Shown in pieces: positions 2,968 to 41,465 of a stretch of DNA of 44,840 nt. The stretch is from a virus. Both the position numbers and the translations under genes were made by a program. How positions within the stretch are numbered: position 1 is the first letter of the stretch; every line of letters starts with the position of its first letter. The stretch is taken from the UHGV virus genome UHGV-0716684. One strand, given 5' to 3'. Below the pieces are notes generated by a model. That model saw only the letters and a list, made by a program, of their open reading frames with translations. It was not told the origin of the DNA and searched no databases.

Positions 2968-3195
2968 TTACTCACCGTCGCCTTCAGTAAGGCTATCGTC
3001 TATTAGTTCAAATTTACCGTTTGAGTGTTGAATAGCTTCTTGCCCGCAATGGTCACAGACAACAAGTTTATCGAACCCATCAAACTCATCCCCTACTACG
3101 CAAGAAAGTACAAATTTATGTTTTGTGCACACTTCTTGCGGAGCGCCGAAAATTGCTCGAAAACCTTTAGCTATGGCCCCAGTGATTGTGTTCAT
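2968..3195 (-). CDS. small zinc-ribbon-like protein
   Basis: 75 aa ORF with C..H and CDHCGQ motifs; GAGGGG Shine-Dalgarno upstream; first gene after promoter at 3224-3252. Confidence 0.55.
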   Translation of the reverse strand: MNTITGAIAKGFRAIFGAPQEVCTKHKFVLSCVVGDEFDGFDKLVVCDHCGQEAIQHSNGKFELIDDSLTEGDGE

Positions 3196-3223
3196 ATCTG
3201 CCCCTCTCGTTTGGTATGGGCTA

Positions 3224-3252
3224 ACTATAATAGCGAACTATTCACATGTCAA
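3224..3252 (-). promoter_or_regulatory. sigma70-like promoter TTGACA-N17-TATAGT with GAATAG-N4-CTATT operator-like palindrome
   Basis: Reverse complement reads TTGACAtgtgaatagttcgctatTATAGT; near-identical to the element at 128-156; divergent from the HTH gene at 3317. Confidence 0.5.
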
Positions 3253-3316
3253 TGGGCTTTTCTAAAATAATTAATATGGTACTATTCACATATCAACTGA
3301 CTAAGGAGTAACTGAC

Positions 3317-3532
3317 ATGCAACCATCTGAACTAGGCATCCGTGTAGAGCAACGCCGTAAAGAACTCGGTATCTCCCAGCGCCGTCTGGCTGTTCTGGCC
3401 GGCGTTTCCCAGGGCGCGATTAACCAGCTTGCACTCGGGGTAACTCAGGACGTACGCCCGGCAACGCTGTTTAAACTGGCGGAAGTGCTGGAAGTAGACG
3501 CCAAGTGGCTGGCGCTAGGTGAAGGGGCGTAA
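3317..3532 (+). CDS. XRE/Cro-family helix-turn-helix transcriptional regulator
   Basis: 71 aa; HTH signature ISQRRLAVLAGVSQGAINQL; AGGAG Shine-Dalgarno; operator-like palindromes in its own upstream region. Confidence 0.8.
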   Translation: MQPSELGIRVEQRRKELGISQRRLAVLAGVSQGAINQLALGVTQDVRPATLFKLAEVLEVDAKWLALGEGA

Positions 3533-3548
3533 CGCCCCTTTCTTTTTA
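3522..3548 (+). terminator. rho-independent terminator (stem aggggcg / cgcccct, then T-run)
   Basis: GC hairpin whose loop is the TAA stop of the HTH gene, followed by tttcttttt. Confidence 0.5.
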
Positions 3549-3549
3549 C

Positions 3550-5772
3550 CTATTCCAAATCCTCCTCTGTCACCACCAGCATCTCATTTGGTTCGTATAG
3601 TGTCTTCGGCCTTAATCTATCACCTATTCTTTCGGGTATACGATATGTTCTCGGTACTACTTCGCCGTTAGCATCGCAACCAAGCATTAGTTCTCCATCT
3701 TTCAACATTTTATCAAGATGGGTGTTAGTCACAGAGAAGTCACCGGAACGAGCCACTATCTGCTGCTGAGTAAAACCGCGACCTGTGTCATCTGACTGTT
3801 GCAGGTCTTCCAGTGCCGAAAGTATTGACTCCTTCCTTACTTCATCCCTGCCGCGTTTAACTTCTTCCTTTACTTTTTGCTTACCTTCTTTCGTCAACCC
3901 TTCTTCCCGCTCTTTCTCCTCGTCAGTTTTGAACGGCTCGAAACCCCACGGCATCAACACAAGCGCCTTGTGTGGTTCAGGCAGGTCCAGGTTTACGATT
4001 GTGCCGTATTCCTCTGTGCTACCCAGGAACTCAACCGCTCGGTATTCTTTAGGCGGCGGCGCTTCACGGAACTGTACCGACTCCAGCACCATGCCAACCG
4101 TCTTCTGCTGAGGCCCGTGCTTGAATTTCGAGTGATATACGTTTATCTGACGGTCGGTTGCACGTTCGATTGTCAGTTCCACGTCAACACCCGCATACAG
4201 CGCCCCACTGCCGCGTGCTTTCTTTCCACCCTTCGGCGTATGGTGGACAACGCCTACTGCGGCTTTAGTTGCATCGCGTACTTCTTTCAGAATGGCGATA
4301 ACTTTACCCATGCCGATTGCTGTTGATGAACTGTTCTCGTCGAACTTATCAATCGTCAGTGCCAGGGTCTGGTTAAGGGTGTCGAACGCAACCATGCCAA
4401 TTGGCTCGTCGCCAGCAGTTTCGCGCATTAACTTAATCAGGCTTTTAAGTTTGCCGACTTCGCCCATATCGATGACGTGTACATAATCTTTACCTTCCCC
4501 GCCATATTTAGCCGCTAGTGCATCAATACGGGTGCGTGTAGCTGCGCCACCCTCACCATCAATATAGAAATGGTGGCAACGCTGGGTATCCGCCCCCGCA
4601 AACCTGTACCCGGCGGCGCTGAGGTACATCATCCCCAGCGTATAGAACGATTTGTACGTGCCAGATTCCCCGACGATATCCCAGATACAATCCGACGGCA
4701 TGTACCCCTCAACGACGAAATCAGCCTTTACCGGCTCCGGTAACTCGTCCTCCTCTGAGTCCTCGTCGTCTTCCAGGTCGTCGAGGCTGCAAGTTACTGG
4801 GTCCTCGTTCTCTGTGCGGTGTAGTTCTTCAATCTCTTCTTCCGGTAAATCAGGCAGAGCCGCACGAATGCTGTTAATGCTGATAGGTTGCTTATCTATG
4901 TTAAGCTCGTCGGGTAGGCCACACATACGCAGGGCCAAATGCTGCCTACGGTTAAGCTCGGTGCAAGCGCCGTTGTTTGTATGCTGGCAGACAAAGCGCA
5001 CTTCTTTACCGTCGAGCATTATGCTGGTGGAGCCCTTGCCTGTATGCAGATGTTCGTTAGGGCATGGCACTTCGTACCCGCGCCCGGAAGATAAAGCGTC
5101 AAGGCCAAGCTCGGCTTCGCAGAAGTGTGCTATATCCGCGTTAAGCCCATGCTCATCAGCGGCAAGTGTTTTAGCCTCACGCTTACGCAACCCCATCTCT
5201 TCGGCTTTCTTGATGTACCGCTCAGCACGGATAACACGCCCTTCTGTAACCGTTATCTTCGACTCTTTATGCGGCAGGTAGATAAGGCGGTTGCCGTCTT
5301 CTGTGCAGTGGTCGCGCAACGCTTCGTCTATTTCTAACTCTGCACAAATAGCACGTTGCACCATCCACGCGTCGTTAGAGTTAAACGGCGTGCGAGCTGG
5401 AACCAGAACGCGGAAAGCGTAATCTCCGTTTTTACATGCGTGCTGATGCGATGCCGTTGTGTGCAGAATATTGAAGAACGGCGCGTTCTTGAATTTGCGT
5501 GTCAGGTCGCGGTACTGAGTACGGTTGAGATGGTCGAAATCGAACTTAACCACACTGTCTTCCAGGATAGCGTTTTTACGGCGACCACCAACAGGCGCAA
5601 TAGCTTTCTGTTTAATCTTGGCAGCGTCGTACTCTTCCTTAGTCCATGACGGGTCCACGGATAAACGCTTCGATGTATCGCAGACATACTCGACAAACTG
5701 CTCCAGCGGCATTTCACGCGCTACAGGGTTTTTATCGAATGTGTTACGCAGCGTTGCAAAAACAATATTCAT
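3550..5772 (-). CDS. putative primase-helicase (primase-polymerase-like N-terminal domain, Zn-binding motif, C-terminal RecA/AAA_25-type ATPase)
   Basis: 740 aa; DFDH and SHQH motifs, CPNEHLH..C..C zinc motif, Walker A GESGTYKS, RecA-like C-terminal region. Confidence 0.7.
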   Translation of the reverse strand: MNIVFATLRNTFDKNPVAREMPLEQFVEYVCDTSKRLSVDPSWTKEEYDAAKIKQKAIAPVGGRRKNAILEDSVVKFDFDHLNRTQYRDLTRKFKNAPFFNILHTTASHQHACKNGDYAFRVLVPARTPFNSNDAWMVQRAICAELEIDEALRDHCTEDGNRLIYLPHKESKITVTEGRVIRAERYIKKAEEMGLRKREAKTLAADEHGLNADIAHFCEAELGLDALSSGRGYEVPCPNEHLHTGKGSTSIMLDGKEVRFVCQHTNNGACTELNRRQHLALRMCGLPDELNIDKQPISINSIRAALPDLPEEEIEELHRTENEDPVTCSLDDLEDDEDSEEDELPEPVKADFVVEGYMPSDCIWDIVGESGTYKSFYTLGMMYLSAAGYRFAGADTQRCHHFYIDGEGGAATRTRIDALAAKYGGEGKDYVHVIDMGEVGKLKSLIKLMRETAGDEPIGMVAFDTLNQTLALTIDKFDENSSSTAIGMGKVIAILKEVRDATKAAVGVVHHTPKGGKKARGSGALYAGVDVELTIERATDRQINVYHSKFKHGPQQKTVGMVLESVQFREAPPPKEYRAVEFLGSTEEYGTIVNLDLPEPHKALVLMPWGFEPFKTDEEKEREEGLTKEGKQKVKEEVKRGRDEVRKESILSALEDLQQSDDTGRGFTQQQIVARSGDFSVTNTHLDKMLKDGELMLGCDANGEVVPRTYRIPERIGDRLRPKTLYEPNEMLVVTEEDLE

Positions 5773-5897
5773 TTCTTTTTCTCCGCACGTTCTAAGGCTT
5801 CCTGCATACGGCGCATTGCGCGGTTCATCTTTACCGGCGCGAAGAAATCGGCGCCGTGTTTCTGTCGGCGCAGCTGTGGAACTATTAACTTCGTCAT
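5769..5897 (-). CDS. small basic hypothetical protein (42 aa)
   Basis: Hand-translated ORF MTKLIVPQLRRQKHG...; ATGA overlap with primase-helicase start. Confidence 0.3.
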   Translation of the reverse strand: MTKLIVPQLRRQKHGADFFAPVKMNRAMRRMQEALERAEKKK

Positions 5898-5966
5898 TGT
5901 ATAATCCTTGTGCTTACTTTGATGATTTGTGCTTTGGCCCCGACGTTCTTGCGTTGGGGTTTCTTT

Positions 5967-8151: not shown

Positions 8152-8285
8152 TGTTCAATAGTTTGGGATTTTACTGAGTGACTTACGCTGCTACACAGCA
8201 GCGTACAACTTTAACTTAGTGTCGTCAAAAGGCGACACTTTCACCAAACGCAACAATCGAAGCGACTATTGCAGGAGACGCAACA

Positions 8286-8456
8286 ATGAAACTGAATGAC
8301 ATCGTAACCTGGACCGGTAGAAACGGAGAAAAGCGATTCGGGCTTATTGTTGCGTCAGACGGCAACAAGTACCGTGTTATGCGCTGGTGCCAGTGGGCCA
8401 GACGCCCGAGGTACTACTGGATTCGTGGCGAACGATTATCTTTAAAACACCAATAA
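8286..8456 (+). CDS. small hypothetical protein (56 aa)
   Basis: Hand-translated MKLNDIVTWTGRNGEKRFG...; AGGAG upstream. Confidence 0.4.
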   Translation: MKLNDIVTWTGRNGEKRFGLIVASDGNKYRVMRWCQWARRPRYYWIRGERLSLKHQ

Positions 8457-8463
8457 AATTTAC

Positions 8464-8492
8464 TTGCACACTAAGATAGAATAGGCTACTAT
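8464..8492 (+). promoter_or_regulatory. promoter TTGCAC-N17-TACTAT with GAATAG-N4-CTATT operator-like palindrome
   Basis: TTGCACactaagatagaataggcTACTATtcat upstream of gene at 8525. Confidence 0.5.
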
Positions 8493-8524
8493 TCATTTAC
8501 ACAGACGAGACAGAGGAAAACGAA

Positions 8525-8710
8525 ATGTTAGAAGTTAAAGTTACAAAAAGAGACAGTGAACTGACTAAAGGCATCTTCAAAGTAGGAACCGTTATAGACC
8601 TGGATTTAGATGACATGGTTGTGTACCACGGTGGGATTGAGTGGAACGTGGCGCGGACCGACAACGGCTTCAAGTTACCAGGAAGTGAGACTCACTTTGC
8701 AGCAGTTTGA
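8525..8710 (+). CDS. hypothetical protein
   Basis: 61 aa ORF; GAGGAAAA upstream. Confidence 0.5.
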   Translation: MLEVKVTKRDSELTKGIFKVGTVIDLDLDDMVVYHGGIEWNVARTDNGFKLPGSETHFAAV

Positions 8711-16799: not shown

Positions 16800-18212
16800 T
16801 CACTTATTCCATACCAATTTCTCTTGTCCGCTATCCCATATGCGGGATACACCTTCCGCAGCGTACCATTCCGACTGTGTAAGCCCCTCTGGCGCTTTGT
16901 TCCATTTTTGCCGTGATTCTGTTTTAGTCGCATTGTTTACGACGATGCGGAATCCACATCTCACAGAAGCCTTTTTAAACCCCGCTGATAGGTATGATTC
17001 TCCGGTAAATAAATCCCGGTCAGTGTAGGTAAAACCGTCGGTGATGCTATAACGGCGCACGGCATAGGCCCATAGCTTCGACAGCCCGCCTACCACCGAA
17101 CACGACGTAGCGTACCGCACAAGCTCCCATTCACCTTTTCTACACGTCAGCGTCATTACCGCAACAATCTTTTCTTCATAAACGAGGCTGATATACCTCG
17201 TCGAGTTACGGAATCCTTGAATGTGGTTCTCCTCCAGGAAACGCTCTGCACATATTTTGTTAATCTCTTTTACATGGCATTTGCGGGCGAAAACTCGCAA
17301 AGAAGAGACGCCGACGGAATGGCCGATTATTTTCTTTATTATTTCTTTTTTATGCAGCCATAGCTCATCCCTTATTGACAGGAGCCGGAACCCTCTTTCC
17401 TCAACGGCGACTCTTTTCTCCATGTGATACTTTCTCCCCTTCCCGGCAGCTTCACTGTGCCAGTACAGGCCGTTTATTTCTATCGCCAGATTATGTTGCG
17501 GTATTAAAATATCTATCTCTCTTGGGTGGATAAGACTTCTATCATTCCGATGATATTCCACCCCCATGCTATCGAGAAATTCACAGACTTCATCCTCCAC
17601 TTTACTACGCCCGAACGACGCGCACCGCGGGCACCCTCTACCCTGAAAAATGTTACCAAGCGTAGAGGCCCATTCATGGCCTTTTTGACACCTCAGTGTC
17701 GATGGCGCACGGCAGATATCCCCTGAATAAGACACCAGTTCAAAACCAGTGCCGCGTAACCTTTCCTCTATTTCTCCGATCTCGAGCCTTTTTCTGTTAG
17801 TGCTGCAATTCGGGCAATGACTTTTACCCCTTAAAATGTCGCTGCCGGTAGCGGACCAGACGAACCCGCATTTACATCTGAACGTTGATTTCCCACTTAC
17901 AGCACCTGCGTAATTAAGGCATTCAACCCCATTAGGCCACTCTGTTACTTTCGCCCGTTTTTCCGCAGCGTAGCATTGGGGGCAACCATGACCGTTTAGG
18001 ACGGTATTGGCCTTTGTCTCCCACACATGGCCACTACGGCAGCGGAATTTAGACTTAAGTTTAGAGTGGCCTGCATACTCAATTACTACTATACCCCGTG
18101 ACGCCAGTCTCAGGTTTACATCTTCTTCAGTTAAACGTCTGGACCCCATTAAAATACCCTCCGCTTCTTCTAGTATAAAGATTGTGTATATACATGTACC
18201 ACAGCAAGACAT
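16800..18212 (-). CDS. putative multi-domain homing-type endonuclease (zinc-ribbon repeats plus PD-(D/E)XK Vsr/DUF559-like nuclease motif)
   Basis: Repeated C..GH.W...G.GCP.C units; motif EIDILIPQHNLAIEINGLYWHSE; opposite strand inside the packaging/head module. Confidence 0.55.
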   Translation of the reverse strand: MSCCGTCIYTIFILEEAEGILMGSRRLTEEDVNLRLASRGIVVIEYAGHSKLKSKFRCRSGHVWETKANTVLNGHGCPQCYAAEKRAKVTEWPNGVECLNYAGAVSGKSTFRCKCGFVWSATGSDILRGKSHCPNCSTNRKRLEIGEIEERLRGTGFELVSYSGDICRAPSTLRCQKGHEWASTLGNIFQGRGCPRCASFGRSKVEDEVCEFLDSMGVEYHRNDRSLIHPREIDILIPQHNLAIEINGLYWHSEAAGKGRKYHMEKRVAVEERGFRLLSIRDELWLHKKEIIKKIIGHSVGVSSLRVFARKCHVKEINKICAERFLEENHIQGFRNSTRYISLVYEEKIVAVMTLTCRKGEWELVRYATSCSVVGGLSKLWAYAVRRYSITDGFTYTDRDLFTGESYLSAGFKKASVRCGFRIVVNNATKTESRQKWNKAPEGLTQSEWYAAEGVSRIWDSGQEKLVWNK

Positions 18213-25568: not shown

Positions 25569-25981
25569 TGGGCTACTTTGAGGACTTAACAAAAGCGTTT
25601 GATGTGCCGCTGGTAGCCTTCGGAACCGCCAACGGCATCAAAGTCGCGCTTGAAAATATCGGCGCACCGACGTCAACCGATACACCATATCTGGCAAGTT
25701 ACATGTTGCTGGCGGATACGGAACAGGCGGATTTGTTCTTCACGGAACAACGCGCTGGCGTCTATCAGGTAGATATTAACTACGCATCGGTGAAAGGTAG
25801 CGCGCCAATCAATAAAATGGCAGACTTACTTAACACGGCGTTTAAAGCAGGTAAGTCATTTTCACGTAACGACATCTGCGCCGAGGTTCAATCGGTTAGC
25901 CTGGGGCCGCTGATTGTAGAAAACGGATGGGCCAAACGACCATTGTCAATTAACTTTATTGCATTCACCAAGAGGCTGTGA
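25565..25981 (+). CDS. putative tail terminator / tail component
   Basis: 138 aa ORF immediately upstream of major tail protein gene. Confidence 0.45.
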   Translation: MMGYFEDLTKAFDVPLVAFGTANGIKVALENIGAPTSTDTPYLASYMLLADTEQADLFFTEQRAGVYQVDINYASVKGSAPINKMADLLNTAFKAGKSFSRNDICAEVQSVSLGPLIVENGWAKRPLSINFIAFTKRL

Positions 25982-27150
25982 ATATGGCTACAACTCCTTT
26001 TAAGGGCGCGAATACTGCGCAATTCTATGTGGCAGAAACTACCCCGGGCGTAACACCGGCTAACCCGGTATGGTCGCCGTTGCGCAACACGGGCGGCGTT
26101 CCTGCCATTACCCGCGACACGCTGACCTCCAACGAACTTGACGGCAGCCGAGAAACCACATCCATCCGCACCGGTAACAAGCAGGTTAGCGGAGAATACG
26201 CTATTGAGCTTAGCTCTAAAAGTCAGGACGACTGGTTAGCCGGGGCTTTAGGCTCTACGTGGCAATCCGGCGTTTCCCTGTCAGGACTATCGATTACCGT
26301 CGCACCCGCGGGCAAGACGTTCACACGCGCTACCGGCAGTTTTATCACTGACGGAGTTGGGGTAGGCGACCTGATTGCGTTTACCGATTTAACAGGCGAT
26401 AACGCAAAACCATTTATTGTTACTGCAGTAACGGCTACGGTTGTTACTGGTGCGGGCATCCAACACACCCTGACCACCGAGACAAAAACTAGTAAGGCTA
26501 AAACTGGCGACACGTTGGAAACCGGTAACGCGTGTAAGACGTTCTCTATCCTTACCTGGTACAAAGGCCAGTGCGGCGGTACTGACGCGTACACGTTAAC
26601 CAAAGGCGTGGAAGTTTCTGGTTTTACCATCGAACAGGCTGTTAACGCGATGGTAACTGGCAGCTTCCCGTTCATCGGTCGCAGTCAGGAGATTCTCACC
26701 ACGCAGCCGTCTGGTTCTGATTTCTCCTCTGTTACGTTTGGTGACGAGCCATTCTCCTCGGTCGATGTTTCTGTGTTCGACGGTTCTACGCCGTTGCGTT
26801 GCGACAGCCTGACCATCGCCAACGACAACAGCGCGTCGGCGCAGTTCGAACTCGGCAACACTAACGTAGCGTTTGTGGAACGTAGCCGCGCGGCTAACAC
26901 CTTCTCCATCTCCGGCAAGCTGTACGACATGGCTATGATTCAGAAGTTTATCAACGAACAGCAGGTGGAGATTAACTCTATTCTGGCGGGGGTAAACGGG
27001 GCTATGTCTTTTAGTTTGAAACGCGCAGAACTCACGGCGGTTACACCTGAGATTGGTGGGCCTGAGTCAATTACCCAAAGTATAGAAGGGCAGTCCACAG
27101 GCAACCAGTATCAGTCGTCTATCGTAATTCAACGTATTAGTTACGCATAA
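25978..27150 (+). CDS. putative major tail protein
   Basis: 390 aa; last gene of the plus-strand head-tail operon, followed by conserved terminator. Confidence 0.6.
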   Translation: MNMATTPFKGANTAQFYVAETTPGVTPANPVWSPLRNTGGVPAITRDTLTSNELDGSRETTSIRTGNKQVSGEYAIELSSKSQDDWLAGALGSTWQSGVSLSGLSITVAPAGKTFTRATGSFITDGVGVGDLIAFTDLTGDNAKPFIVTAVTATVVTGAGIQHTLTTETKTSKAKTGDTLETGNACKTFSILTWYKGQCGGTDAYTLTKGVEVSGFTIEQAVNAMVTGSFPFIGRSQEILTTQPSGSDFSSVTFGDEPFSSVDVSVFDGSTPLRCDSLTIANDNSASAQFELGNTNVAFVERSRAANTFSISGKLYDMAMIQKFINEQQVEINSILAGVNGAMSFSLKRAELTAVTPEIGGPESITQSIEGQSTGNQYQSSIVIQRISYA

Positions 27151-27154
27151 AACT

Positions 27155-27179
27155 AAGGCCCCGAAAGGGGCCTTTTCTT
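27155..27179. terminator. conserved bidirectional terminator hairpin aaggccccgaaaggggcctt
   Basis: T-rich tract on both strands; convergent gene ends. Confidence 0.65.
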
Positions 27180-27396
27180 ACTCACTTTTGAACGGCATTT
27201 CGTAGAAGTTAGTTAACTGGCCTCGGTCCCTTCGTTCTGTCATTTCTTTAGAGGCCTCTTCCTTACTACTAACGGCATAAATATCAACCCACTCGTCCCA
27301 TTCTTCGTCGTATACTCGGATTACATATATTGTTTTCATAATATTTTCACTCATCAATATTGCTTCGGTATTCCCGTAACTTCTCCAGACTTTCAA
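27178..27396 (-). CDS. hypothetical protein (accessory island)
   Basis: 72 aa ORF on opposite strand within tail module. Confidence 0.45.
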   Translation of the reverse strand: MKVWRSYGNTEAILMSENIMKTIYVIRVYDEEWDEWVDIYAVSSKEEASKEMTERRDRGQLTNFYEMPFKSE

Positions 27397-27577
27397 TTGC
27401 TTCTGCTAAGTCGGTTCCGGTGTCCTTGTGTCCGCGCAAGCCCATGCACAATAACTTCTTTAACGCATGCTGTAGCGCCGGGTCACGGATATCGAAAGCA
27501 CGGAGCACATCATAAACGTCTACTGTCATGGTGCTGCCGTGAGTGTTTGTCATTGTGCGGTTGTATTTTGAAGTCAT
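27347..27577 (-). CDS. hypothetical protein (accessory island)
   Basis: 76 aa ORF. Confidence 0.45.
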   Translation of the reverse strand: MTSKYNRTMTNTHGSTMTVDVYDVLRAFDIRDPALQHALKKLLCMGLRGHKDTGTDLAEAIESLEKLREYRSNIDE

Positions 27578-27586
27578 CTCTACACC

Positions 27587-28087
27587 CTATTTATAACCGT
27601 TGTTGAATGTTGTCAGTCCATGATTTATGTGAAACCTATTAGCCACAGACATGTAAATTCTTTCAGCGAAAGCGTCCTCTATTCTGTCAAATGTTTTACT
27701 AATCTGCTTACCGTTGACAACGGCATAAGCTCTCCACTTAGTTTTTCCTTTCCGCGCCACACCCGTAACTCCAGAGGTATTATCTTTGCGCCTTTTCACG
27801 TTAACCATGTTGTCCCTTCTAGATTTGCATGACAGGTTTTCAATTCTGTCGTCACAGGTATCATGGTTAGTATGGTCTATGACAAATCCTTTTGGAATCT
27901 TACCTGAGAACATCTCATACACCACCCTCGACCTTTTAAACTTACGGTTACCAAACATGACATACCAATAGCCGTTTTTACACAAACTCCCGGCCACATC
28001 ACCTATATTCACATCGTTACGGCGACATGATTTGACTTTCCAGTATAGGACGCCATTTTTGTAGCTAAAAACCTCACTCCAATCCAT
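27587..28087 (-). CDS. HNH homing endonuclease with AP2 DNA-binding domain
   Basis: HNH_3 motif VIDHTNHDTCDDRIENLSCKSRRDN; AP2-like SGVTGVARKGKTKWRAYAVVNGKQISKTFDRIEDA. Confidence 0.75.
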   Translation of the reverse strand: MDWSEVFSYKNGVLYWKVKSCRRNDVNIGDVAGSLCKNGYWYVMFGNRKFKRSRVVYEMFSGKIPKGFVIDHTNHDTCDDRIENLSCKSRRDNMVNVKRRKDNTSGVTGVARKGKTKWRAYAVVNGKQISKTFDRIEDAFAERIYMSVANRFHINHGLTTFNNGYK

Positions 28088-28102
28088 ACTTTCACCTATA
28101 TT

Positions 28103-29257
28103 TTAGTATGTCGATTTTGGGTTTATGTCTCGCAGCATTTCGACAGGTATACTTATGCGGGACACCTCCCCGTAACGTTTGTGGTATGTAATCACATTTG
28201 CGCTTCTACCTGAATAATAGCCGCCCTTACTAGAATACTCATCTTTAGCCGCTAATGTCTGGTGTTGCTCAACAATTAGCAGATTAGTCTCTTTAACCGC
28301 CCTGTGATGGAGGTGCCCCGTATGGACATATGTGAACTTACACCGCCCGTACATCTCCCGGTACTTACCGATTATAGCCTGCTCTACCTTAGCAAAGTTA
28401 GAACAATGCCCGTGATGTGCTGAAATCATACAATCCCCGAACTTGTACGCATAATACGGTGACACCTCCCGGTTAACCTCGACGCGAGGCTCATTTGTGT
28501 ATACCTCGTAGAACATCTCCCGGAGCCACAGAGAAGAACTAAGGTCGTGGTTACCTTCACAGATAAGAAGTTTAACCTTCTTGTGTTTTCGCAAGCACAG
28601 TGAGACAGCCAGCTTGATAACCTTAATGGCCGTGCGTATCATTTTAAACAGGCGACTATCCGCTGAAAGAATATGACCGCTCATAGGGGTCATTGCCTTC
28701 ATGCCGTCGTAGTGCATTTGGTCCCCTAAGAAGTTAATGATACATTCACCACTCTGTGGACTCATACAAACCGCACTGTTGAACCAGTCAACCGCGAGAG
28801 ATTCCGCGATTGTGGTGTCGTAATCATCCCCGCCTTCTTCTTGACACGCCAACATCCCTATGTGATGGTCTGTTATTGTGTAAAGATTTAATAAGTCGTC
28901 ATCTGTCCCATTTTTGGCCAAAGTGACTGGCTTATACTTGGGTAAATCTTTTTTCATCTCGTCCACAACGGCTTTCATTAACTCGACCTGACGTTCCGCA
29001 TCGGTGTCGGTCTTAACCCATTGCAGTTTAGTGTTGCCTAACTCATCAACCAGAGACGATGTACCCTTAATCTTGTAGCCGTCCGGCACAAGGTGGCTAA
29101 CGTCACGCCCGTGGCCTACGCCTTTCTTCGCTAGTTTCGCTTTACGGATACGAATAACGCGGTCTGAGATGCCGTATTTACGAGCAATGTCGATATTCTT
29201 CATCCCAGCGTTCAATTCTTCCTGTAACTGTTCGTCGGTTATTTTCTTCTGGGCCAT
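28103..29257 (-). CDS. HTH-fused calcineurin-like metallophosphoesterase
   Basis: N-terminal HTH (IDIARKYGISDRVI); phosphoesterase motifs TDHH, GDQMHYDG, GNHD, HTGHLHH. Confidence 0.65.
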   Translation of the reverse strand: MAQKKITDEQLQEELNAGMKNIDIARKYGISDRVIRIRKAKLAKKGVGHGRDVSHLVPDGYKIKGTSSLVDELGNTKLQWVKTDTDAERQVELMKAVVDEMKKDLPKYKPVTLAKNGTDDDLLNLYTITDHHIGMLACQEEGGDDYDTTIAESLAVDWFNSAVCMSPQSGECIINFLGDQMHYDGMKAMTPMSGHILSADSRLFKMIRTAIKVIKLAVSLCLRKHKKVKLLICEGNHDLSSSLWLREMFYEVYTNEPRVEVNREVSPYYAYKFGDCMISAHHGHCSNFAKVEQAIIGKYREMYGRCKFTYVHTGHLHHRAVKETNLLIVEQHQTLAAKDEYSSKGGYYSGRSANVITYHKRYGEVSRISIPVEMLRDINPKSTY

Positions 29258-29322
29258 GCCTATTTCCTCGTGTTTAGGATTTGTCCTATTTAACCACAGT
29301 GCATTCCTTTAAATAAAGGCAA

Positions 29323-29649
29323 CTATTTACTTTCTGCGCCTATTGACCATCCGGTTGTAACCATTTGCAAACGAGTGGCTAACAGTAGGCTGCTGAAAGT
29401 GGGGCTGTTAACATCTACAGACTCAACAACAAGGGATGTCATCAATTCAAGACCAAGGCCAGACCCGCCAGCGCGCACGGCAGCATTACATTCGCGAATA
29501 GCAGCGGTTTTAAACGCACTAACGGCAGACGGAGGGGCTGAATCAAGCACCCCGGAAGTTACTAAAGGGGTTTCACTATATACTTGCTCACACTGGGACC
29601 CTACCGCGCAAAAAGAAATAAGACCCATGGCTATGATTAATTTACGCAT
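29323..29649 (-). CDS. small secreted/periplasmic protein
   Basis: 108 aa; N-terminal signal peptide MRKLIIAMGLISFCAVG; first gene downstream of promoter at 29690-29718. Confidence 0.5.
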   Translation of the reverse strand: MRKLIIAMGLISFCAVGSQCEQVYSETPLVTSGVLDSAPPSAVSAFKTAAIRECNAAVRAGGSGLGLELMTSLVVESVDVNSPTFSSLLLATRLQMVTTGWSIGAESK

Positions 29650-29826: not shown

Positions 29827-30243
29827 ATGAAACTTTCTGATTTTTATTTCGCGTCCCGCCACGCTGCGGGAACTAAGATGCCTATCCTGCTACCGGACGG
29901 CAGTGACTCAGGGGAGTGGTTGCAGGTGATGGGGCCTGACTGCGACGACTCAATCGCCGCAGCTAAGGATTTTATCTCCGCTTACCGCGACATCCTTGAC
30001 CGCCTGAAACCGCTCGACGCGGAGTGCCGCGAGAAAGGGGACTGGGCGCGCTATAACACGGAATTAAACAGTGAATTGGCTAAACTTAACGATGCACTTG
30101 CTGCCGTTGTTGTTGTAGGGTGGTCCTTCGAGGAGAAGTTCACTAAGAAAGCGTTGGTCAAGCTGTTGAAGGAGTATAAAGGGTTGGGAGGGGCTGTCGC
30201 TCAACACCATGCTGAGAGCCGCAAAGCTTTATCTGTAAAGTAG
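29827..30243 (+). CDS. putative tail assembly chaperone
   Basis: 138 aa ORF directly upstream of tape measure gene; AAGGA RBS. Confidence 0.5.
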   Translation: MKLSDFYFASRHAAGTKMPILLPDGSDSGEWLQVMGPDCDDSIAAAKDFISAYRDILDRLKPLDAECREKGDWARYNTELNSELAKLNDALAAVVVVGWSFEEKFTKKALVKLLKEYKGLGGAVAQHHAESRKALSVK

Positions 30244-30602: not shown

Positions 30603-32598
30603 TACCGCGAGTTTAATGGTGCGAGTCCAGGCAACTGGAGCGGAGCAAGCAGCAAAGCAGTTAGATAACCTTAGTAGTTCCGCTGGGAAAGCGGATTCCA
30701 GCACAAAGAAACTAACGGACACCACCTCCGCGGCAACCCCGAAGATGAACGCGATGCGGGCGTCAATAGGTAATGCTGGGTATCAGGTACAGGACTTTAT
30801 CGTACAAATCCAAGGGGGGCAGTCCGCCCTCACGGCTTTCACGCAACAAGGTAGTCAGTTAGTGTCCGCATTCAATCCAATTGCGGGCACGGTATTGACT
30901 ATCGCCACCGTAATCGGCGGCGCGCTGTACGCGTCTTTGAGTAACTCAACGGATACCGCTAAACAACTGGAGGAAGCTACTAAGTTCCTTGATGACGCTC
31001 TTAATGAGGCCACACCCGGTGTGTATGACATGAATGACGCACTGGAAAAACTGGACGCTGTCGGGGCAACAACAGCGGAGAAGATGGCATTTCTTAATAA
31101 GGCACTAGAGGCAACCGCCATACAGGCTAACTCCACCGCAGATAAGATTGTTGAAGCTATTGATAAGGTAACAAAAGCCCAATCTCTGTTTCAGAAGTTG
31201 ACCACCAACCTTGCCGCATCACAGATAGCCCAAGGCGGGGACGCTGCCGGGGCCGTGGCTTTCCAGTACGAATCCGCTGCGGAAGCTGCGGGGTTGACCG
31301 CCAAAGAGTTACGCAGTATTGAAGTTGCTCAGAAAGCAATCGCAGCTGGGGTTCCTGGAGCTCGAGAAGGGCTGGTCGCCTACCTGGACGGCATAAACGC
31401 CAAAACGCCAGAAGCGCAGATGGAAATAAATAAACTGCGAAATGAACTTAACTACCTTGGTGTGGAGGAAAAGACCCGCGCAGCCGAGCGAAAAGGGGTA
31501 GAGCAATCTGAGAAGACGTATGAAAAGGATAAGGCGGACAGGGCACAGAAGGAAATAGACAGGCAGAATCGTATCGCTGCCGCAGCTAAGAAACGAGCAG
31601 ATGCTCAAGCCCGCGCCGACGCTCGCGCGCAGGAAAGCGCACAGAAAGCCGCAGACCAGTTTATAGCTCAAATAGACACAAACACCGGAACAGAGTTAGA
31701 ACGGATAGACGCCAAAGAGAAACAGAAACTGGCTAAATTGCAGGAGTTCCACGACAAGCAACTCGTAAGCGACGCTGACTACGAGAAGTCGAAAAGTGAC
31801 ATCATGGCGGAGTTTCAGGCACAACGAGATGCGCTGTATAACAATGCTGATGCATATCTGGAGAAACTACAGGCGCTTGGTGGCACAGAGTTCGAGGAAA
31901 TCCAACGGCAGAATGACGCCAAACTTAAGCAACTGGACGATTTCCTTAAACAGAAACTAATCAGCGAAGAAGAATACGCTAATGCAGTGCGTAACCTGAA
32001 CGAACAGAGCAATATTGCACAAGCCAACGCCACCGCCGACGCATTCGGCAGCATGGCAGCGGATGCTAAATCCGCACTGGGGGAGACGTCCGCTGCGTAC
32101 AAAGCGTTCGCCATAACGCAAGCGACTATTGCCACTTACACGGCTGCTATCGAAGCCTATAAATCAACTGCTGCTATTCCAATTGTCGGCCCGGCACTCG
32201 CTCCGGTTGCCGCGGGTCTGGCTGTCGCGGCGGGGGTGGCGAACATCGCCAAGATTAGCGGCGCGCGTGAGCAAGGCGGGCAAATGAACGCTGGCGGTAG
32301 TTACCTGGTTGGTGAACGCGGCCCTGAGATTATCAAGATGGCGGGTTCTGGCAGGGCGACCAATGCAAGTCAAACACGGCAGCAGTTAAACGGTAATAAT
32401 AGCGGAAATAGTGGCCCATCTAATGTTACTATCGTAAACAACACGAGTTCTCAAATCGGCAACGTATCCACTGAGCAAGATGATGAGGGCCGTTTGCGTA
32501 TCATCATTGAAGAACAGGTTGCCGCGTCTTTGCAGAACAGCAACAGTAAGATTAGCAAGGCTCGCAAGGCCACAAGAAACGCGCCGGGGTTCAAATAA
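30595..32598 (+). CDS. tail tape measure protein
   Basis: About 670 aa, long coiled-coil-like A/E/K/Q-rich sequence with Gly/Ala-rich hydrophobic segment near C-terminus; canonical position. Confidence 0.8.
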   Translation: MADTASLMVRVQATGAEQAAKQLDNLSSSAGKADSSTKKLTDTTSAATPKMNAMRASIGNAGYQVQDFIVQIQGGQSALTAFTQQGSQLVSAFNPIAGTVLTIATVIGGALYASLSNSTDTAKQLEEATKFLDDALNEATPGVYDMNDALEKLDAVGATTAEKMAFLNKALEATAIQANSTADKIVEAIDKVTKAQSLFQKLTTNLAASQIAQGGDAAGAVAFQYESAAEAAGLTAKELRSIEVAQKAIAAGVPGAREGLVAYLDGINAKTPEAQMEINKLRNELNYLGVEEKTRAAERKGVEQSEKTYEKDKADRAQKEIDRQNRIAAAAKKRADAQARADARAQESAQKAADQFIAQIDTNTGTELERIDAKEKQKLAKLQEFHDKQLVSDADYEKSKSDIMAEFQAQRDALYNNADAYLEKLQALGGTEFEEIQRQNDAKLKQLDDFLKQKLISEEEYANAVRNLNEQSNIAQANATADAFGSMAADAKSALGETSAAYKAFAITQATIATYTAAIEAYKSTAAIPIVGPALAPVAAGLAVAAGVANIAKISGAREQGGQMNAGGSYLVGERGPEIIKMAGSGRATNASQTRQQLNGNNSGNSGPSNVTIVNNTSSQIGNVSTEQDDEGRLRIIIEEQVAASLQNSNSKISKARKATRNAPGFK

Positions 32599-39557: not shown

Positions 39558-40978
39558 TTCTTACCTCGTCTCTTCATGTAATTAAGCAATTCTTCCTGCA
39601 CCGATTTCTTCTCGTCTGTACGCGCGGCAACAACCTCGTCCAGCGTGTCTTTAGCAACGATGTGATAGAGGAACACCGGCCGCTCGCGCCCTGCCTGTTT
39701 CTGGCGGACCGGGCCTATACGCTCGACAACCTGCAAATAGTGCTCAAGGTTCCAGCCTTGCGAGATGAATGCCAGATGATGCCCGCCGTCCTGTAAATTC
39801 AAACCATGCCCGGCTGACGCAGGATGCACGCATAAGATTTCGATTTCCCCTCGGTTCCATGCTTCCATCTGCTTATTGCCCTTAGCGCCTTTGGCAAACG
39901 CCTGGGCCTGCGGGAATCGCTTAAGGATGCGCTCCAGTTCGTGCTTAAACTGATAGGCCACCAATAACGGAGCGCCCTGTAACTCCTCAACAATCGACTC
40001 AAGCGCATCCAGTTTCGTGTCGTGAACTTTCTCCCAGTCTTTGGTTGCTTCTCCGTCTGGCCCCGATACATACACGGCACCGGATGCAATCTGTAGGCAC
40101 TTCGACGTCTTCGCCGCAGCGTTAGCCGCTTCCACTTCCCCGCTCTCCAGTTCTGCGAATAGCTTCTCCTCCATATCGATGTACGCCTGACGCGCCTTCT
40201 TCGGTAGGTCGATTTCAACCGGTACAATAATCGGCGCTTCACAACCAAACCACTCGGCCGCGTCAATCGTGAGACTAATGTCTTTCATCTTCTGATGAAT
40301 CTCATTATCTGCGCCAGGGCGGGCGTGGTATTCACGTGCCATCGCCGATTTGCCCTTCTGTACCGAGTTAAACCAGCGGTCTGTGAATGCTGTGTATGAA
40401 GAACCGAGGCGCTCTCCAGCGTCGATAAACCAGTTCTGACCCCACAAGTCCTTAAGGCCGTTCGGTGACGGTGTACCGGTAAGGTTAATGAAACGCTTAA
40501 CCTTACCGAACGCCACTTTGCTTAACGCCTTTGCTCTCTTACTACCGCCAGAACGACTACGGAATGATTTCAACTTCGTGCTTTCATCGGCGACGATAAC
40601 CGTAAAAGGCCAGTCGTCTTTGCCGTAGTAGTCGATAAGCCACTCGATAACTTCGTAGTTGGTGCACACCACGTTAGCGTCTGACTCCAGCGCCGCGATG
40701 CGGCGCTTCTCTGAACCGGTCGCATCGACGACACGCAGACAAGGGAAGTTCCATTTCTCTTGTTCTGCAGGCCATGTACCTGACGCAACACGCAACGGCG
40801 CGAGGATTAACACGCGGTCATCATCATTAAGTTGGCCGTTGCGGAACAGTCTGTTTAACGCCCACAGTACGCTGCCAGTCTTACCCGCACCCATGCTCGC
40901 CCATATGTTACAGCGATGGTGCCGCAGCATGAACGAGGTCATAAGCTTCTGGTACTCGCGCCTTTGAAACTTACTCAT
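39554..40978 (-). CDS. superfamily II DNA helicase (SNF2/RAD54-like)
   Basis: 474 aa; Walker A GAGKTG, DEST box (VADESTKLK), motif III LTGTP. Confidence 0.8.
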   Translation of the reverse strand: MSKFQRREYQKLMTSFMLRHHRCNIWASMGAGKTGSVLWALNRLFRNGQLNDDDRVLILAPLRVASGTWPAEQEKWNFPCLRVVDATGSEKRRIAALESDANVVCTNYEVIEWLIDYYGKDDWPFTVIVADESTKLKSFRSRSGGSKRAKALSKVAFGKVKRFINLTGTPSPNGLKDLWGQNWFIDAGERLGSSYTAFTDRWFNSVQKGKSAMAREYHARPGADNEIHQKMKDISLTIDAAEWFGCEAPIIVPVEIDLPKKARQAYIDMEEKLFAELESGEVEAANAAAKTSKCLQIASGAVYVSGPDGEATKDWEKVHDTKLDALESIVEELQGAPLLVAYQFKHELERILKRFPQAQAFAKGAKGNKQMEAWNRGEIEILCVHPASAGHGLNLQDGGHHLAFISQGWNLEHYLQVVERIGPVRQKQAGRERPVFLYHIVAKDTLDEVVAARTDEKKSVQEELLNYMKRRGKK

Positions 40979-41465
40979 TGGGTCGTATTCCTTTGTCTAA
41001 TGTTTCAAGTGCCGATACCCTGGCGGCTATTGCTTCTTCTCTTGTAGAGTAATAGCCTAAATGCTTCTTTATTCCGTCAATAGTCATATACGCGGCCCAT
41101 TTATTATGCGACTCTCGCCACCTAACGCCAGGAAAGCCGCTTTTATTACTCGACCTAATTTTCTGCCATCCAGCTTTTGCGACGTTACCTTGTTGTGTCA
41201 CTAACTGTAGATTTTCCAATCGGTTATCATCGTACACGCCATTTATGTGGTCAATTTGCATTCCTTCTGGAATCTTGCCGTTGTGCATCTCCCAGACTAT
41301 TCTATGCGCTTGGTATATTTTACCTTTGAACTTAATACGCCTATGACCCTTGTTTACCGAGCTTCCTGCTGTACTGCCTACCGATACTCTCGGCCCCGGT
41401 CTTACTCGCCAAATGAGGGTGCCGTTGTCGTAGGTGAATATCCTTCCCCATGCTATTTCACACAT
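40971..41465 (-). CDS. HNH homing endonuclease with AP2 DNA-binding domain (paralog of 27587-28087)
   Basis: HNH_3 motif QIDHINGVYDDNRLENLQLVTQQGN; AP2-like SGFPGVRWRESHNKWAAYMTIDGIKKHLGYY. Confidence 0.75.
   Translation of the reverse strand: MCEIAWGRIFTYDNGTLIWRVRPGPRVSVGSTAGSSVNKGHRRIKFKGKIYQAHRIVWEMHNGKIPEGMQIDHINGVYDDNRLENLQLVTQQGNVAKAGWQKIRSSNKSGFPGVRWRESHNKWAAYMTIDGIKKHLGYYSTREEAIAARVSALETLDKGIRPNE

Follow-up and report, generated by a model that had tools for sequence, protein, structure and literature searches.

A helix-turn-helix metallophosphoesterase in a reverse-strand cassette of the Guernseyvirinae phage genome UHGV-0716684: a mosaic member of a widespread phage family and candidate stand-alone DNA nuclease

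The DNA described here is the virus genome UHGV-0716684, a stretch of 44,840 nucleotides which is referred to below as the window and which originates from a siphophage of the Guernseyvirinae. The element under study is a minus-strand gene (28103..29257) encoding a protein of 384 amino acids (aa) in which a helix-turn-helix (HTH) is joined to a metallophosphoesterase (MPE) domain. The open reading frame (ORF) is intact and starts with an ATG, 8 nt upstream of which a Shine-Dalgarno-like GAGGA could be read from the sequence (29265..29269, minus strand). The product belongs to the PHROG 704 family and is a homologue of ST16 of phage T1 and gp66 of phage TLS. The 3-kb stretch surrounding the gene has matches in 387 phage records, the best of which are the Escherichia phages BUCT823 and vB_EcoS_XY1 (Kagunavirus; XY1 below) and many Salmonella Jerseyviruses.

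The gene is part of a five-gene minus-strand cassette flanked by the plus-strand genes of the tail tube (25978-27150) and of the tail assembly chaperone (29827-30243). The cassette is transcribed in the order 108-aa signal-peptide protein, HTH-MPE, HNH endonuclease, 76-aa ORF and 72-aa ORF. The assignment of the gene to an accessory island, made in the original prediction, describes its location well, namely a reverse-oriented variable cassette between the tail tube and tail assembly chaperone genes. It does not describe the gene itself, since the MPE is the constant member of this otherwise variable cassette within the Guernseyvirinae and full-length copies occur in 1,940 phage records. The first gene of the cassette (29323..29649, minus strand) codes for a protein of 108 aa whose N-terminal segment is hydrophobic and signal-like; the protein belongs to PHROG 14165, a family with no assigned function. 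In phages XY1, Ent3 and Golestan the same slot is filled by a 59-63-aa superinfection-immunity gene of the Imm type (Imm_superinfect), and the 108-aa protein may represent an alternative exclusion or moron gene. Directly downstream of the MPE lies the gene of a 166-aa HNH homing endonuclease (27587..28087, minus strand; Pfam HNH_3, 6e-16; PHROG 99), which occupies the place of the HAD phosphatase and deoxynucleoside monophosphate (dNMP) kinase genes found in relatives. It is followed by the 76-aa ORF (27347-27577, minus strand), an independent small protein known from 774 phage records, those of Salmonella, Escherichia, Acinetobacter and Vibrio phages among them, and aligning only with the C-terminal part of longer PHROG families (2452, and 17613 labeled 'ATPase'). 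The possibility that this ORF is a remnant of the P-loop dNMP kinase of relatives was considered and rejected, as it bears no similarity to the XY1 kinase and occurs independently in those 774 records. A bidirectional intrinsic terminator (27155..27174), with an 8-bp GC-rich stem and T tracts on both strands, is common to the tail tube gene and the cassette. No convincing sigma-70 promoter was found by scanning the region upstream of the cassette.

All five ordered motifs of the MPE superfamily, DxH, GDxx(D/H), GNH(D/E), H and GHxH, are present in the 384-aa protein, as TDHH (residues 129-132), GDQMHYDG (178-185), GNHD (235-238), HHGH (281-284) and GHLHH (314-318). Their conservation was evaluated on an alignment of 43 diverse family members with identities down to 29%. 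Motif I (D130-H-H132, 28862..28870; minus strand, as are all protein features given below) carries predicted metal ligands, both invariant in this alignment. Motif II (G178-D179-x-x-H182-x-D184, 28706..28726) combines the bridging aspartate with a nuclease-type histidine; G178 and D179 are invariant, and H182 and D184 are conserved in at least 90% of the sequences. Both central residues of motif III (G235-N236-H237-D238, 28544..28555) are invariant. The same holds for H282 in motif IV (H281-H282-G283-H284, 28406..28417), where H281 and G283 reach at least 90%, and for G314 and H317 in motif V (G314-H315-L-H317-H318, 28304..28318), where H315 reaches at least 90%. The structure was modeled as a monomer with AlphaFold2 from 57 sequences, at a predicted local distance difference test (pLDDT) score of 83.2. 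In this model the catalytic region, residues 119-371 (28145..28903), adopts the MPE beta-sandwich and is assigned as a binuclear, Mre11/SbcD-like domain devoid of a capping domain. It is preceded by a beta-hairpin and a long helix (residues 61-103, 28949..29077, from the AlphaFold2 secondary structure) which join it to the HTH; within this hairpin-helix module W80 is invariant and G74 nearly invariant among the 43 members. The HTH itself spans residues 8-44 (29126..29236) and consists of three predicted helices (8-16, 21-28 and 32-44) with pLDDT values of 84-89.

Database profiles recognize both modules more readily in relatives than in the query. Taken alone, the query HTH yields weak GerE/FixJ matches only. 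Among the 43 relatives, matches were obtained to Sigma70_r4_2 (9 sequences, best 1.5e-9), GerE (6), HTH_8 (6) and HTH_1 (5); the family profile aligns with the GerE and NarL HTHs of the PDB, and relatives with longer or different N-termini still possess an HTH, of another Pfam type. The HTH is thus real at the family level. For the catalytic domain, Pfam Metallophos is matched at E<=0.01 by 11 of the 43 relatives and Metallophos_2 by 9, and the query does not match Metallophos at E<0.1, so that its catalytic domain has to be regarded as divergent. Scans of the query against Pfam, NCBIfam and PADLOC returned no catalytic-domain match, a single-sequence PDB search returned nothing relevant, and the anti-phage defence proteins of PADLOC-DB gave no match at E<=0.1. 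The central claim of the original prediction, an N-terminal HTH fused to a complete calcineurin-like phosphoesterase within 384 aa, is borne out by the motifs, by the HTH matches of the family and by AlphaFold. The four motifs it listed are all there, HHGH being a fifth that it missed; of the two checks that it proposed, structure prediction agreed at residues 119-371, and the Metallophos profile failed on the query itself and succeeded on part of the relatives. Both modules are under strong purifying selection, with a ratio of nonsynonymous to synonymous substitution rates (dN/dS) of 0.006 (dS 0.74) for codons 1-95 against the Kagunavirus allele and of 0.027 (dS 0.39) for codons 42-384 against the Jerseyvirus allele.

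The family to which the protein belongs is large. The PHROG 704 profile ('DNA repair exonuclease') is matched at E=1e-150, residues 3-375 covering positions 1-389 of 390. A profile search of 1.84 billion representative sequences retrieved 5,485 clusters at E<=1e-3, 1,408 of them at E<=1e-30, numbers far above chance, and most of the cluster representatives are 370-420 aa long and span both modules. Using tblastn, homologues were located in 2,012 of 50,697 phage records, including the full-length ones mentioned above. Carriers include T1, TLS, AAS23, Dhillonvirus, Webervirus and Jedunavirus as well as phages of Rhodobacter, Vibrio and Campylobacter, and Salmonella phage SEP gp23 is a further member of PHROG 704. 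Over the full length, identity amounts to 40% with T1 ST16 (YP_003929) and to 38% with gp38 of Pantoea phage AAS23; it is 93% with the Jerseyvirus allele and 99.7% with the MPE protein of XY1. The gene was also found at 54 loci of bacterial genomes near endolysin, terminase and portal genes, and these loci are therefore prophages; their proteobacterial hosts include Pseudomonas, Stutzerimonas, Brucella/Ochrobactrum, Rhizobium and Dyella. Public labels for the family are inconsistent and range from DNA repair exonuclease, proof-reading exonuclease and recombination endonuclease subunit to Ser/Thr protein phosphatase, metallophosphoesterase, transcriptional regulator, winged-HTH protein, sigma-70 region 4 domain-containing protein, oxidoreductase and hypothetical protein.

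The type of MPE was examined by structure and by profile. Comparison of the predicted model with known MPEs gave figures of 15.2 for Thermotoga maritima Mre11, 14.5 for Staphylococcus aureus SbcD, 13.3 for MJ0936, 13.1 for both the DNA polymerase delta small subunit and PolD DP1, 13.0 for Escherichia coli SbcD, 12.5 for YfcE, 12.2 for Rv0805, 12.0 for GpdQ, 8.7 for the Pseudomonas putida MPE, 8.4 for PP5 and 8.2 for calcineurin. The order of these figures was unchanged with a poorer first model. A profile restricted to the catalytic domain was in addition searched against all PDB sequences, every MPE of the PDB included; T. maritima Mre11/SbcD, at E 0.07, and the P. putida 'Nuclease MPE', at E 0.2, were its sole matches. 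As sequence matches these are marginal, yet they are exclusively to nucleases, and the profile alignments superpose DxHxG, GDxLH and GNHD. In combination with the published ligand list (PMC7826289), the alignment pairs D130, H132, D179, H182, N236 and H237 of the window protein with D33, H35, D78, H81, N112 and H113 of the P. putida MPE, respectively; the corresponding motif II segment of T. maritima Mre11 reads GDLLH. In the P. putida enzyme, His113 is the proposed general acid, and both His81 and His113 are needed for DNA cleavage while being dispensable for the hydrolysis of bis(p-nitrophenyl) phosphate (Ghosh et al., PMC7826289). The equivalents of these two DNase-specific histidines are precisely those found to be conserved at 90% or more (H182) and invariant (H237) across the family. 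The Mre11/SbcD-type nuclease-domain fold and its motif II histidine are both present. The AlphaFold2 model shows no C-terminal capping (DNA specificity) domain, no Rad50/SbcC-type SMC-like ATPase is annotated among the 76 genes of XY1, and no SMC-like ATPase was detected among the 10 window proteins scanned against Pfam. The protein would thus be an Mre11/SbcD-like fold working alone, like the P. putida MPE, with which it shares the His81/His113 equivalents, the stand-alone arrangement and the absence of a capping domain; the specific beta-sandwich topology of the P. putida clade and its Lhr-Core/ligase operon were not found. The signature of PPP-type enzymes such as lambda phosphatase and PrpA/B (GDxxDRG, GNHE and the PPP fold) is absent as well, and the 384-aa protein is not a PPP-type protein phosphatase.

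The allele carried by the window is of composite origin. Within the stretch analyzed, megablast matches to Jerseyviruses are restricted to 27344..29134, a tract of 92-93% identity which takes in the 76-aa ORF and the HNH gene together with codons 42-384 of the MPE gene and which is embedded in Kagunavirus-like flanks. The common Kagunavirus allele is matched at about 100% identity over residues 1-95 and at only about 50% in the catalytic domain; identity to the Jerseyvirus allele is 40-70% over residues 1-40 and rises to 90-100% over residues 41-384. Judged by these identities, the MPE gene is a mosaic, with an HTH of Kagunavirus type and a catalytic domain of Jerseyvirus type. The 1.8-kb Jerseyvirus-type tract apparently results from co-conversion around the homing endonuclease. 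The HAD phosphatase and dNMP kinase genes are gone from the window, having been displaced by the HNH gene. The mosaic shows that the two modules can be exchanged between alleles, and the swap is evidently tolerated. In XY1, a 187-aa protein labeled 'calcineurin-like' (5402-5965) was considered as a second MPE partner and rejected: it consists of a truncated HNH (residues 1-61) joined, at a shared 'EMF', to a C-terminal remnant of the resident Kagunavirus MPE matching residues 219-376. The HAD phosphatase and dNMP kinase genes of XY1 come after this ORF. HNH homing endonuclease genes adjoin the MPE in several unrelated lineages, namely T1 (8207-8689), TLS (39965-40636), Vibrio phage K137 (4241-4750), Jerseyviruses and some prophages, which suggests that homing has repeatedly targeted the MPE gene or its 3' flank. 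Two further endonuclease genes were observed elsewhere in the window. A 470-aa minus-strand ORF (16800-18212), present as an insertion between the portal and head-morphogenesis genes at a place where XY1 has no gene, combines a DUF4379 treble-clef zinc finger with a Vsr/REase_MTES_1575-like endonuclease domain; it is probably another free-standing homing-type endonuclease. A second HNH_3 endonuclease, of 164 aa and with an AP2 domain (40971-41465, minus strand), lies between the SNF2 helicase gene and the upstream genes of the replication module. With endonuclease genes at three sites, the phage carries at least three endonuclease insertions.

The gene neighbourhood of relatives was compared at 91 phage loci, mostly of T1 relatives from IMG/VR, supplemented with annotated genomes. 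The order MPE, 162-aa HAD phosphatase and P-loop kinase of about 190 aa is observed at 36 of them. The HAD neighbour contains the PNKP phosphatase domain (PF25109, 9e-21) and falls in PHROG 415 ('polynucleotide kinase'), and the kinase falls in PHROG 139 ('deoxynucleoside monophosphate kinase'); the same triad corresponds to gp38-40 of AAS23 (PMC8004638). At 30 T1-type loci the next gene encodes a small hydrophobic protein, taken to be a holin. Recurrent neighbours in prophages are the DNMK kinase (PF21448), a dATP/dGTP diphosphohydrolase (PF18909) and DUF7768/DUF4406 proteins. In relatives, the setting of the gene is one of nucleotide metabolism. In the Drexlerviridae T1, Roth09, TLS and AAS23, a Dam-type N6-adenine methyltransferase gene is located 3-4 genes upstream of the MPE, in the same orientation. 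The TLS genome also has an annotated Stp-like 'activator of host PrrC' peptide (1865-1945) and a pnkP gene (3132-3695), both distant from the MPE; the polynucleotide kinase/phosphatase and dNMP kinase genes of TLS are unlinked from it.

From the intactness and conservation of the gene, its motifs and fold, the absence of a partner and the operon context of relatives described above, we infer DNA as the substrate as well as the biological role. The reading we prefer, with a rough probability of 0.4, is that of an HTH-tethered, stand-alone, metal-dependent phosphodiesterase whose most likely role is the breakdown of host DNA. The more general part of this reading, a nuclease or phosphodiesterase acting on DNA in whatever role, is probably correct, and the specific assignment to host-DNA degradation and nucleotide salvage is put forward tentatively. 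The proposed mechanism can be summarized as follows. Two metal ions, probably Mn2+, would be held by D130, H132, D179, N236, H282 and/or H284, H315 and H317 and would activate a water molecule, H237 would act as general acid on the leaving group, with H182 positioning either H237 or the backbone of the DNA. Recruitment to duplex DNA would fall to the HTH together with the conserved hairpin-helix module, and catalysis would proceed with neither a Rad50/SbcC ATPase nor a capping domain. Host DNA, and perhaps other unprotected DNA, would be broken down in the course of infection to feed nucleotide salvage, host functions being silenced incidentally. Such a role would be analogous to that of T5 A1 with its DNA-binding partner A2 and would fill the host-chromosome-degradation function of T1-like phages.

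Several lines of evidence favor host-DNA breakdown. The operon partners in relatives are nucleotide-pool enzymes, which argues for salvage, and a HAD 3'-phosphatase partner would make sense if the nuclease left some 3'-phosphate ends, as does the P. putida MPE, which makes mixed 3'-PO4 and 3'-OH ends. Host-genome degradation with reuse of the nucleotides is known for both T1 and TLS, and both carry the MPE family; as of the 2024 re-annotation of TLS, the early gene responsible was unidentified and gp66 carried no more than the label 'proof-reading exonuclease' (PMC11447400). The predicted metallophosphatase A1 of T5 provides a precedent: it is necessary and sufficient for host DNA degradation and acts alongside other gene products, among them the DNA-binding protein A2 and the dNMP phosphatase Dmp (bioRxiv 10.64898/2026.04.02.716235). 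Another precedent is the MPE Gp48 of mycobacteriophage A10ZJ24, which breaks down DNA both in vitro and in vivo and in this way keeps host defence genes from being induced (PMC12287305). By analogy with the latter, the window protein could exert an anti-defence effect indirectly, through the destruction of host DNA (PMC12287305).

A number of observations weigh against host-DNA breakdown. The homology with T5 A1 is confined to 22 columns at motif III (probability 23% and pairwise E 9e-4 in hhalign, with hmmsearch in agreement). The window has neither the HAD nor the dNMP kinase neighbour, and the salvage context is consequently borrowed from relatives. Host-DNA breakdown also presupposes that the Guernseyvirinae degrade host DNA and that phage DNA is spared in some way, and a bulk DNase would not be expected to carry a sequence-specific HTH. 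The literature search returned no experimental study of any family member, only homology-based labels. Finally, gp38 of AAS23 (38% identity; 30800-31924) was detected by liquid chromatography-tandem mass spectrometry in purified virions (PMC8004638), which hints at a different, early-acting or structural association; unless this signal reflects contamination, the virion might carry the enzyme and deliver it along with the DNA.

The main rival to a role on host DNA is a nuclease guided by its HTH to the DNA of the phage itself, which, in the manner of SbcD or of the 'DNA repair exonuclease' label, would process intermediates of replication or recombination, hairpins, stalled forks or concatemer ends. 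The evidence from fold and motifs, in its entirety, fits this explanation equally well. It agrees with database labels such as 'DNA repair exonuclease', 'recombination endonuclease subunit' and 'proof-reading exonuclease', with the transcription unit that the MPE shares with a helicase, a VRR-NUC nuclease and the Dam methylase in T1, TLS and AAS23, and with the orientation of the gene, which is that of the replication genes of the window. We nevertheless consider it rather unlikely, given that no Rad50/SbcC partner is found among the window proteins scanned or in XY1 and that the recurrent neighbours are nucleotide-pool enzymes and not recombination proteins. The phage moreover already encodes a DUF2800/PD-(D/E)XK exonuclease and a VRR-NUC-type endonuclease, as well as a PolA whose own 3'-5' exonuclease domain would make a proof-reading role redundant and hence improbable. 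The PNKP phosphatase domain of the downstream neighbour in many relatives (PF25109 9e-21, PHROG 415) would agree with an end-healing phosphoesterase, which would remove 3'-phosphates or 2',3'-cyclic phosphates as part of a split Pnkp-like system with the HAD protein and the kinase, for instance against host anticodon nucleases. Two MPEs, Clostridium thermocellum Pnkp and lambda phosphatase, are active as 2',3'-cyclic phosphodiesterases (PMC2190708), and TLS also encodes the Stp-like peptide and a pnkP gene; such a function is still improbable in our estimation.

The targets suggested in the original prediction, host proteins to be dephosphorylated or nucleotide second messengers of defence systems to be degraded, fare less well. 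A Ser/Thr phosphatase acting on host proteins is not supported, the PPP-type motifs and fold being absent; an enzyme destroying the cyclic nucleotide or cyclic oligonucleotide signals of CBASS, Pycsar, Thoeris or type III CRISPR, including a class III cyclic-nucleotide phosphodiesterase of the kind of CpdA/Icc or Rv0805, is compatible with the fold and finds no specific support. Together these are given only a small share of our confidence. The smallest is reserved for a protein that is primarily a transcription regulator, in which a sigma-70-region-4- or LuxR-like HTH would bind promoters or RNA polymerase and the MPE domain would serve as sensor or accessory. The HTH matches to the Sigma70_r4_2, GerE and Fis families, homologues annotated as 'transcriptional regulator' or 'sigma-70 region 4 domain-containing protein', a weak match to PHROG 836 ('late transcriptional activator') and the binding of RNA polymerase by T5 A1 are all in its favor. 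However, the catalytic and metal-binding residues remain invariant over about 70% sequence divergence, which points to catalysis rather than to a degenerate sensor domain, and the dN/dS of 0.027 in the catalytic domain is likewise at odds with it.

Extending the preferred reading, host-DNA breakdown, to the family as a whole leads to a broader proposal: the HTH-MPE proteins of T1, TLS, Guernseyvirinae, Dhillonvirus, Webervirus and many prophages may constitute the T1-type host-chromosome-degrading enzyme, a single-chain counterpart of T5 A1 plus A2 that supplies nucleotides and disarms inducible defences. This proposal is doubtful on present evidence, but it makes the family a concrete and easily testable candidate for the host-genome degradation gene of T1 and TLS. 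If it is true, knockout of the gene should give high-frequency generalized transducing phages, as do the classical T1 mutants defective in host-DNA degradation (Roberts & Drexler 1981, cited in PMC11447400). The family occurs in about 4% of sequenced phage genomes, including T1 and many therapeutic phages of Salmonella, E. coli and Klebsiella, and is one of the more widespread phage enzymes devoid of an experimentally established function. A host-DNA nuclease would bear on the transduction safety of therapeutic phages, on nucleotide economy during infection and on generic counter-defence; should the enzyme prove to be something else, a large set of misleading annotations would still be corrected.

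Among known systems, Mre11/SbcD (T. maritima Mre11 3QG5, S. aureus SbcD 7DOG and E. coli SbcD 6S6V) is only 12-15% identical to the window protein and is devoid of its N-terminal HTH and hairpin-helix module. Conversely, Mre11/SbcD possesses a capping domain and a Rad50/SbcC ATPase, and the window protein has neither, as judged from the proteins scanned and the XY1 gene list. The P. putida MPE (6NVO), a Mn2+-dependent single-stranded DNA endonuclease, resembles it in being stand-alone, in lacking a capping domain and in its DxHxG...GDFLH...GNHD motifs. T5 A1 displays the same order of MPE motifs with different spacing, the local match reading ESNHDxxxSxWL in T5 A1 and EGNHDxxxSxWL in the family; no similarity to T5 A2 was found using hhalign. 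The T5 gene is encoded near a dNMP phosphatase and is functionally linked to a DNA-binding protein, which may be compared with the HTH and the nucleotide enzymes seen in relatives of the window gene. Unlike the window protein, T5 A1 is 556 aa long with a long, unrelated N-terminus and relies on a separate protein for DNA binding. It is moreover a pre-early gene located on the first-step-transfer DNA, and T5 excretes the breakdown products with no reuse. Gp48 of A10ZJ24 (cluster A), likewise a phage MPE, combines phosphodiesterase with DNase activity and blunts defence by degrading host DNA (PMC12287305); the residues mutated in that protein, D10, D41 and H175, imply a catalytic domain starting from the N-terminus, with no extension comparable to that of the window protein. 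The closest counterparts are the PHROG 704 proteins themselves, T1 ST16 and TLS gp66, which belong to the same family and share the same architecture end to end. Set against these relatives, the window copy is recombinant and has lost the HAD phosphatase and dNMP kinase genes, and it is accordingly a new recombinant member of a known, catalogued family.

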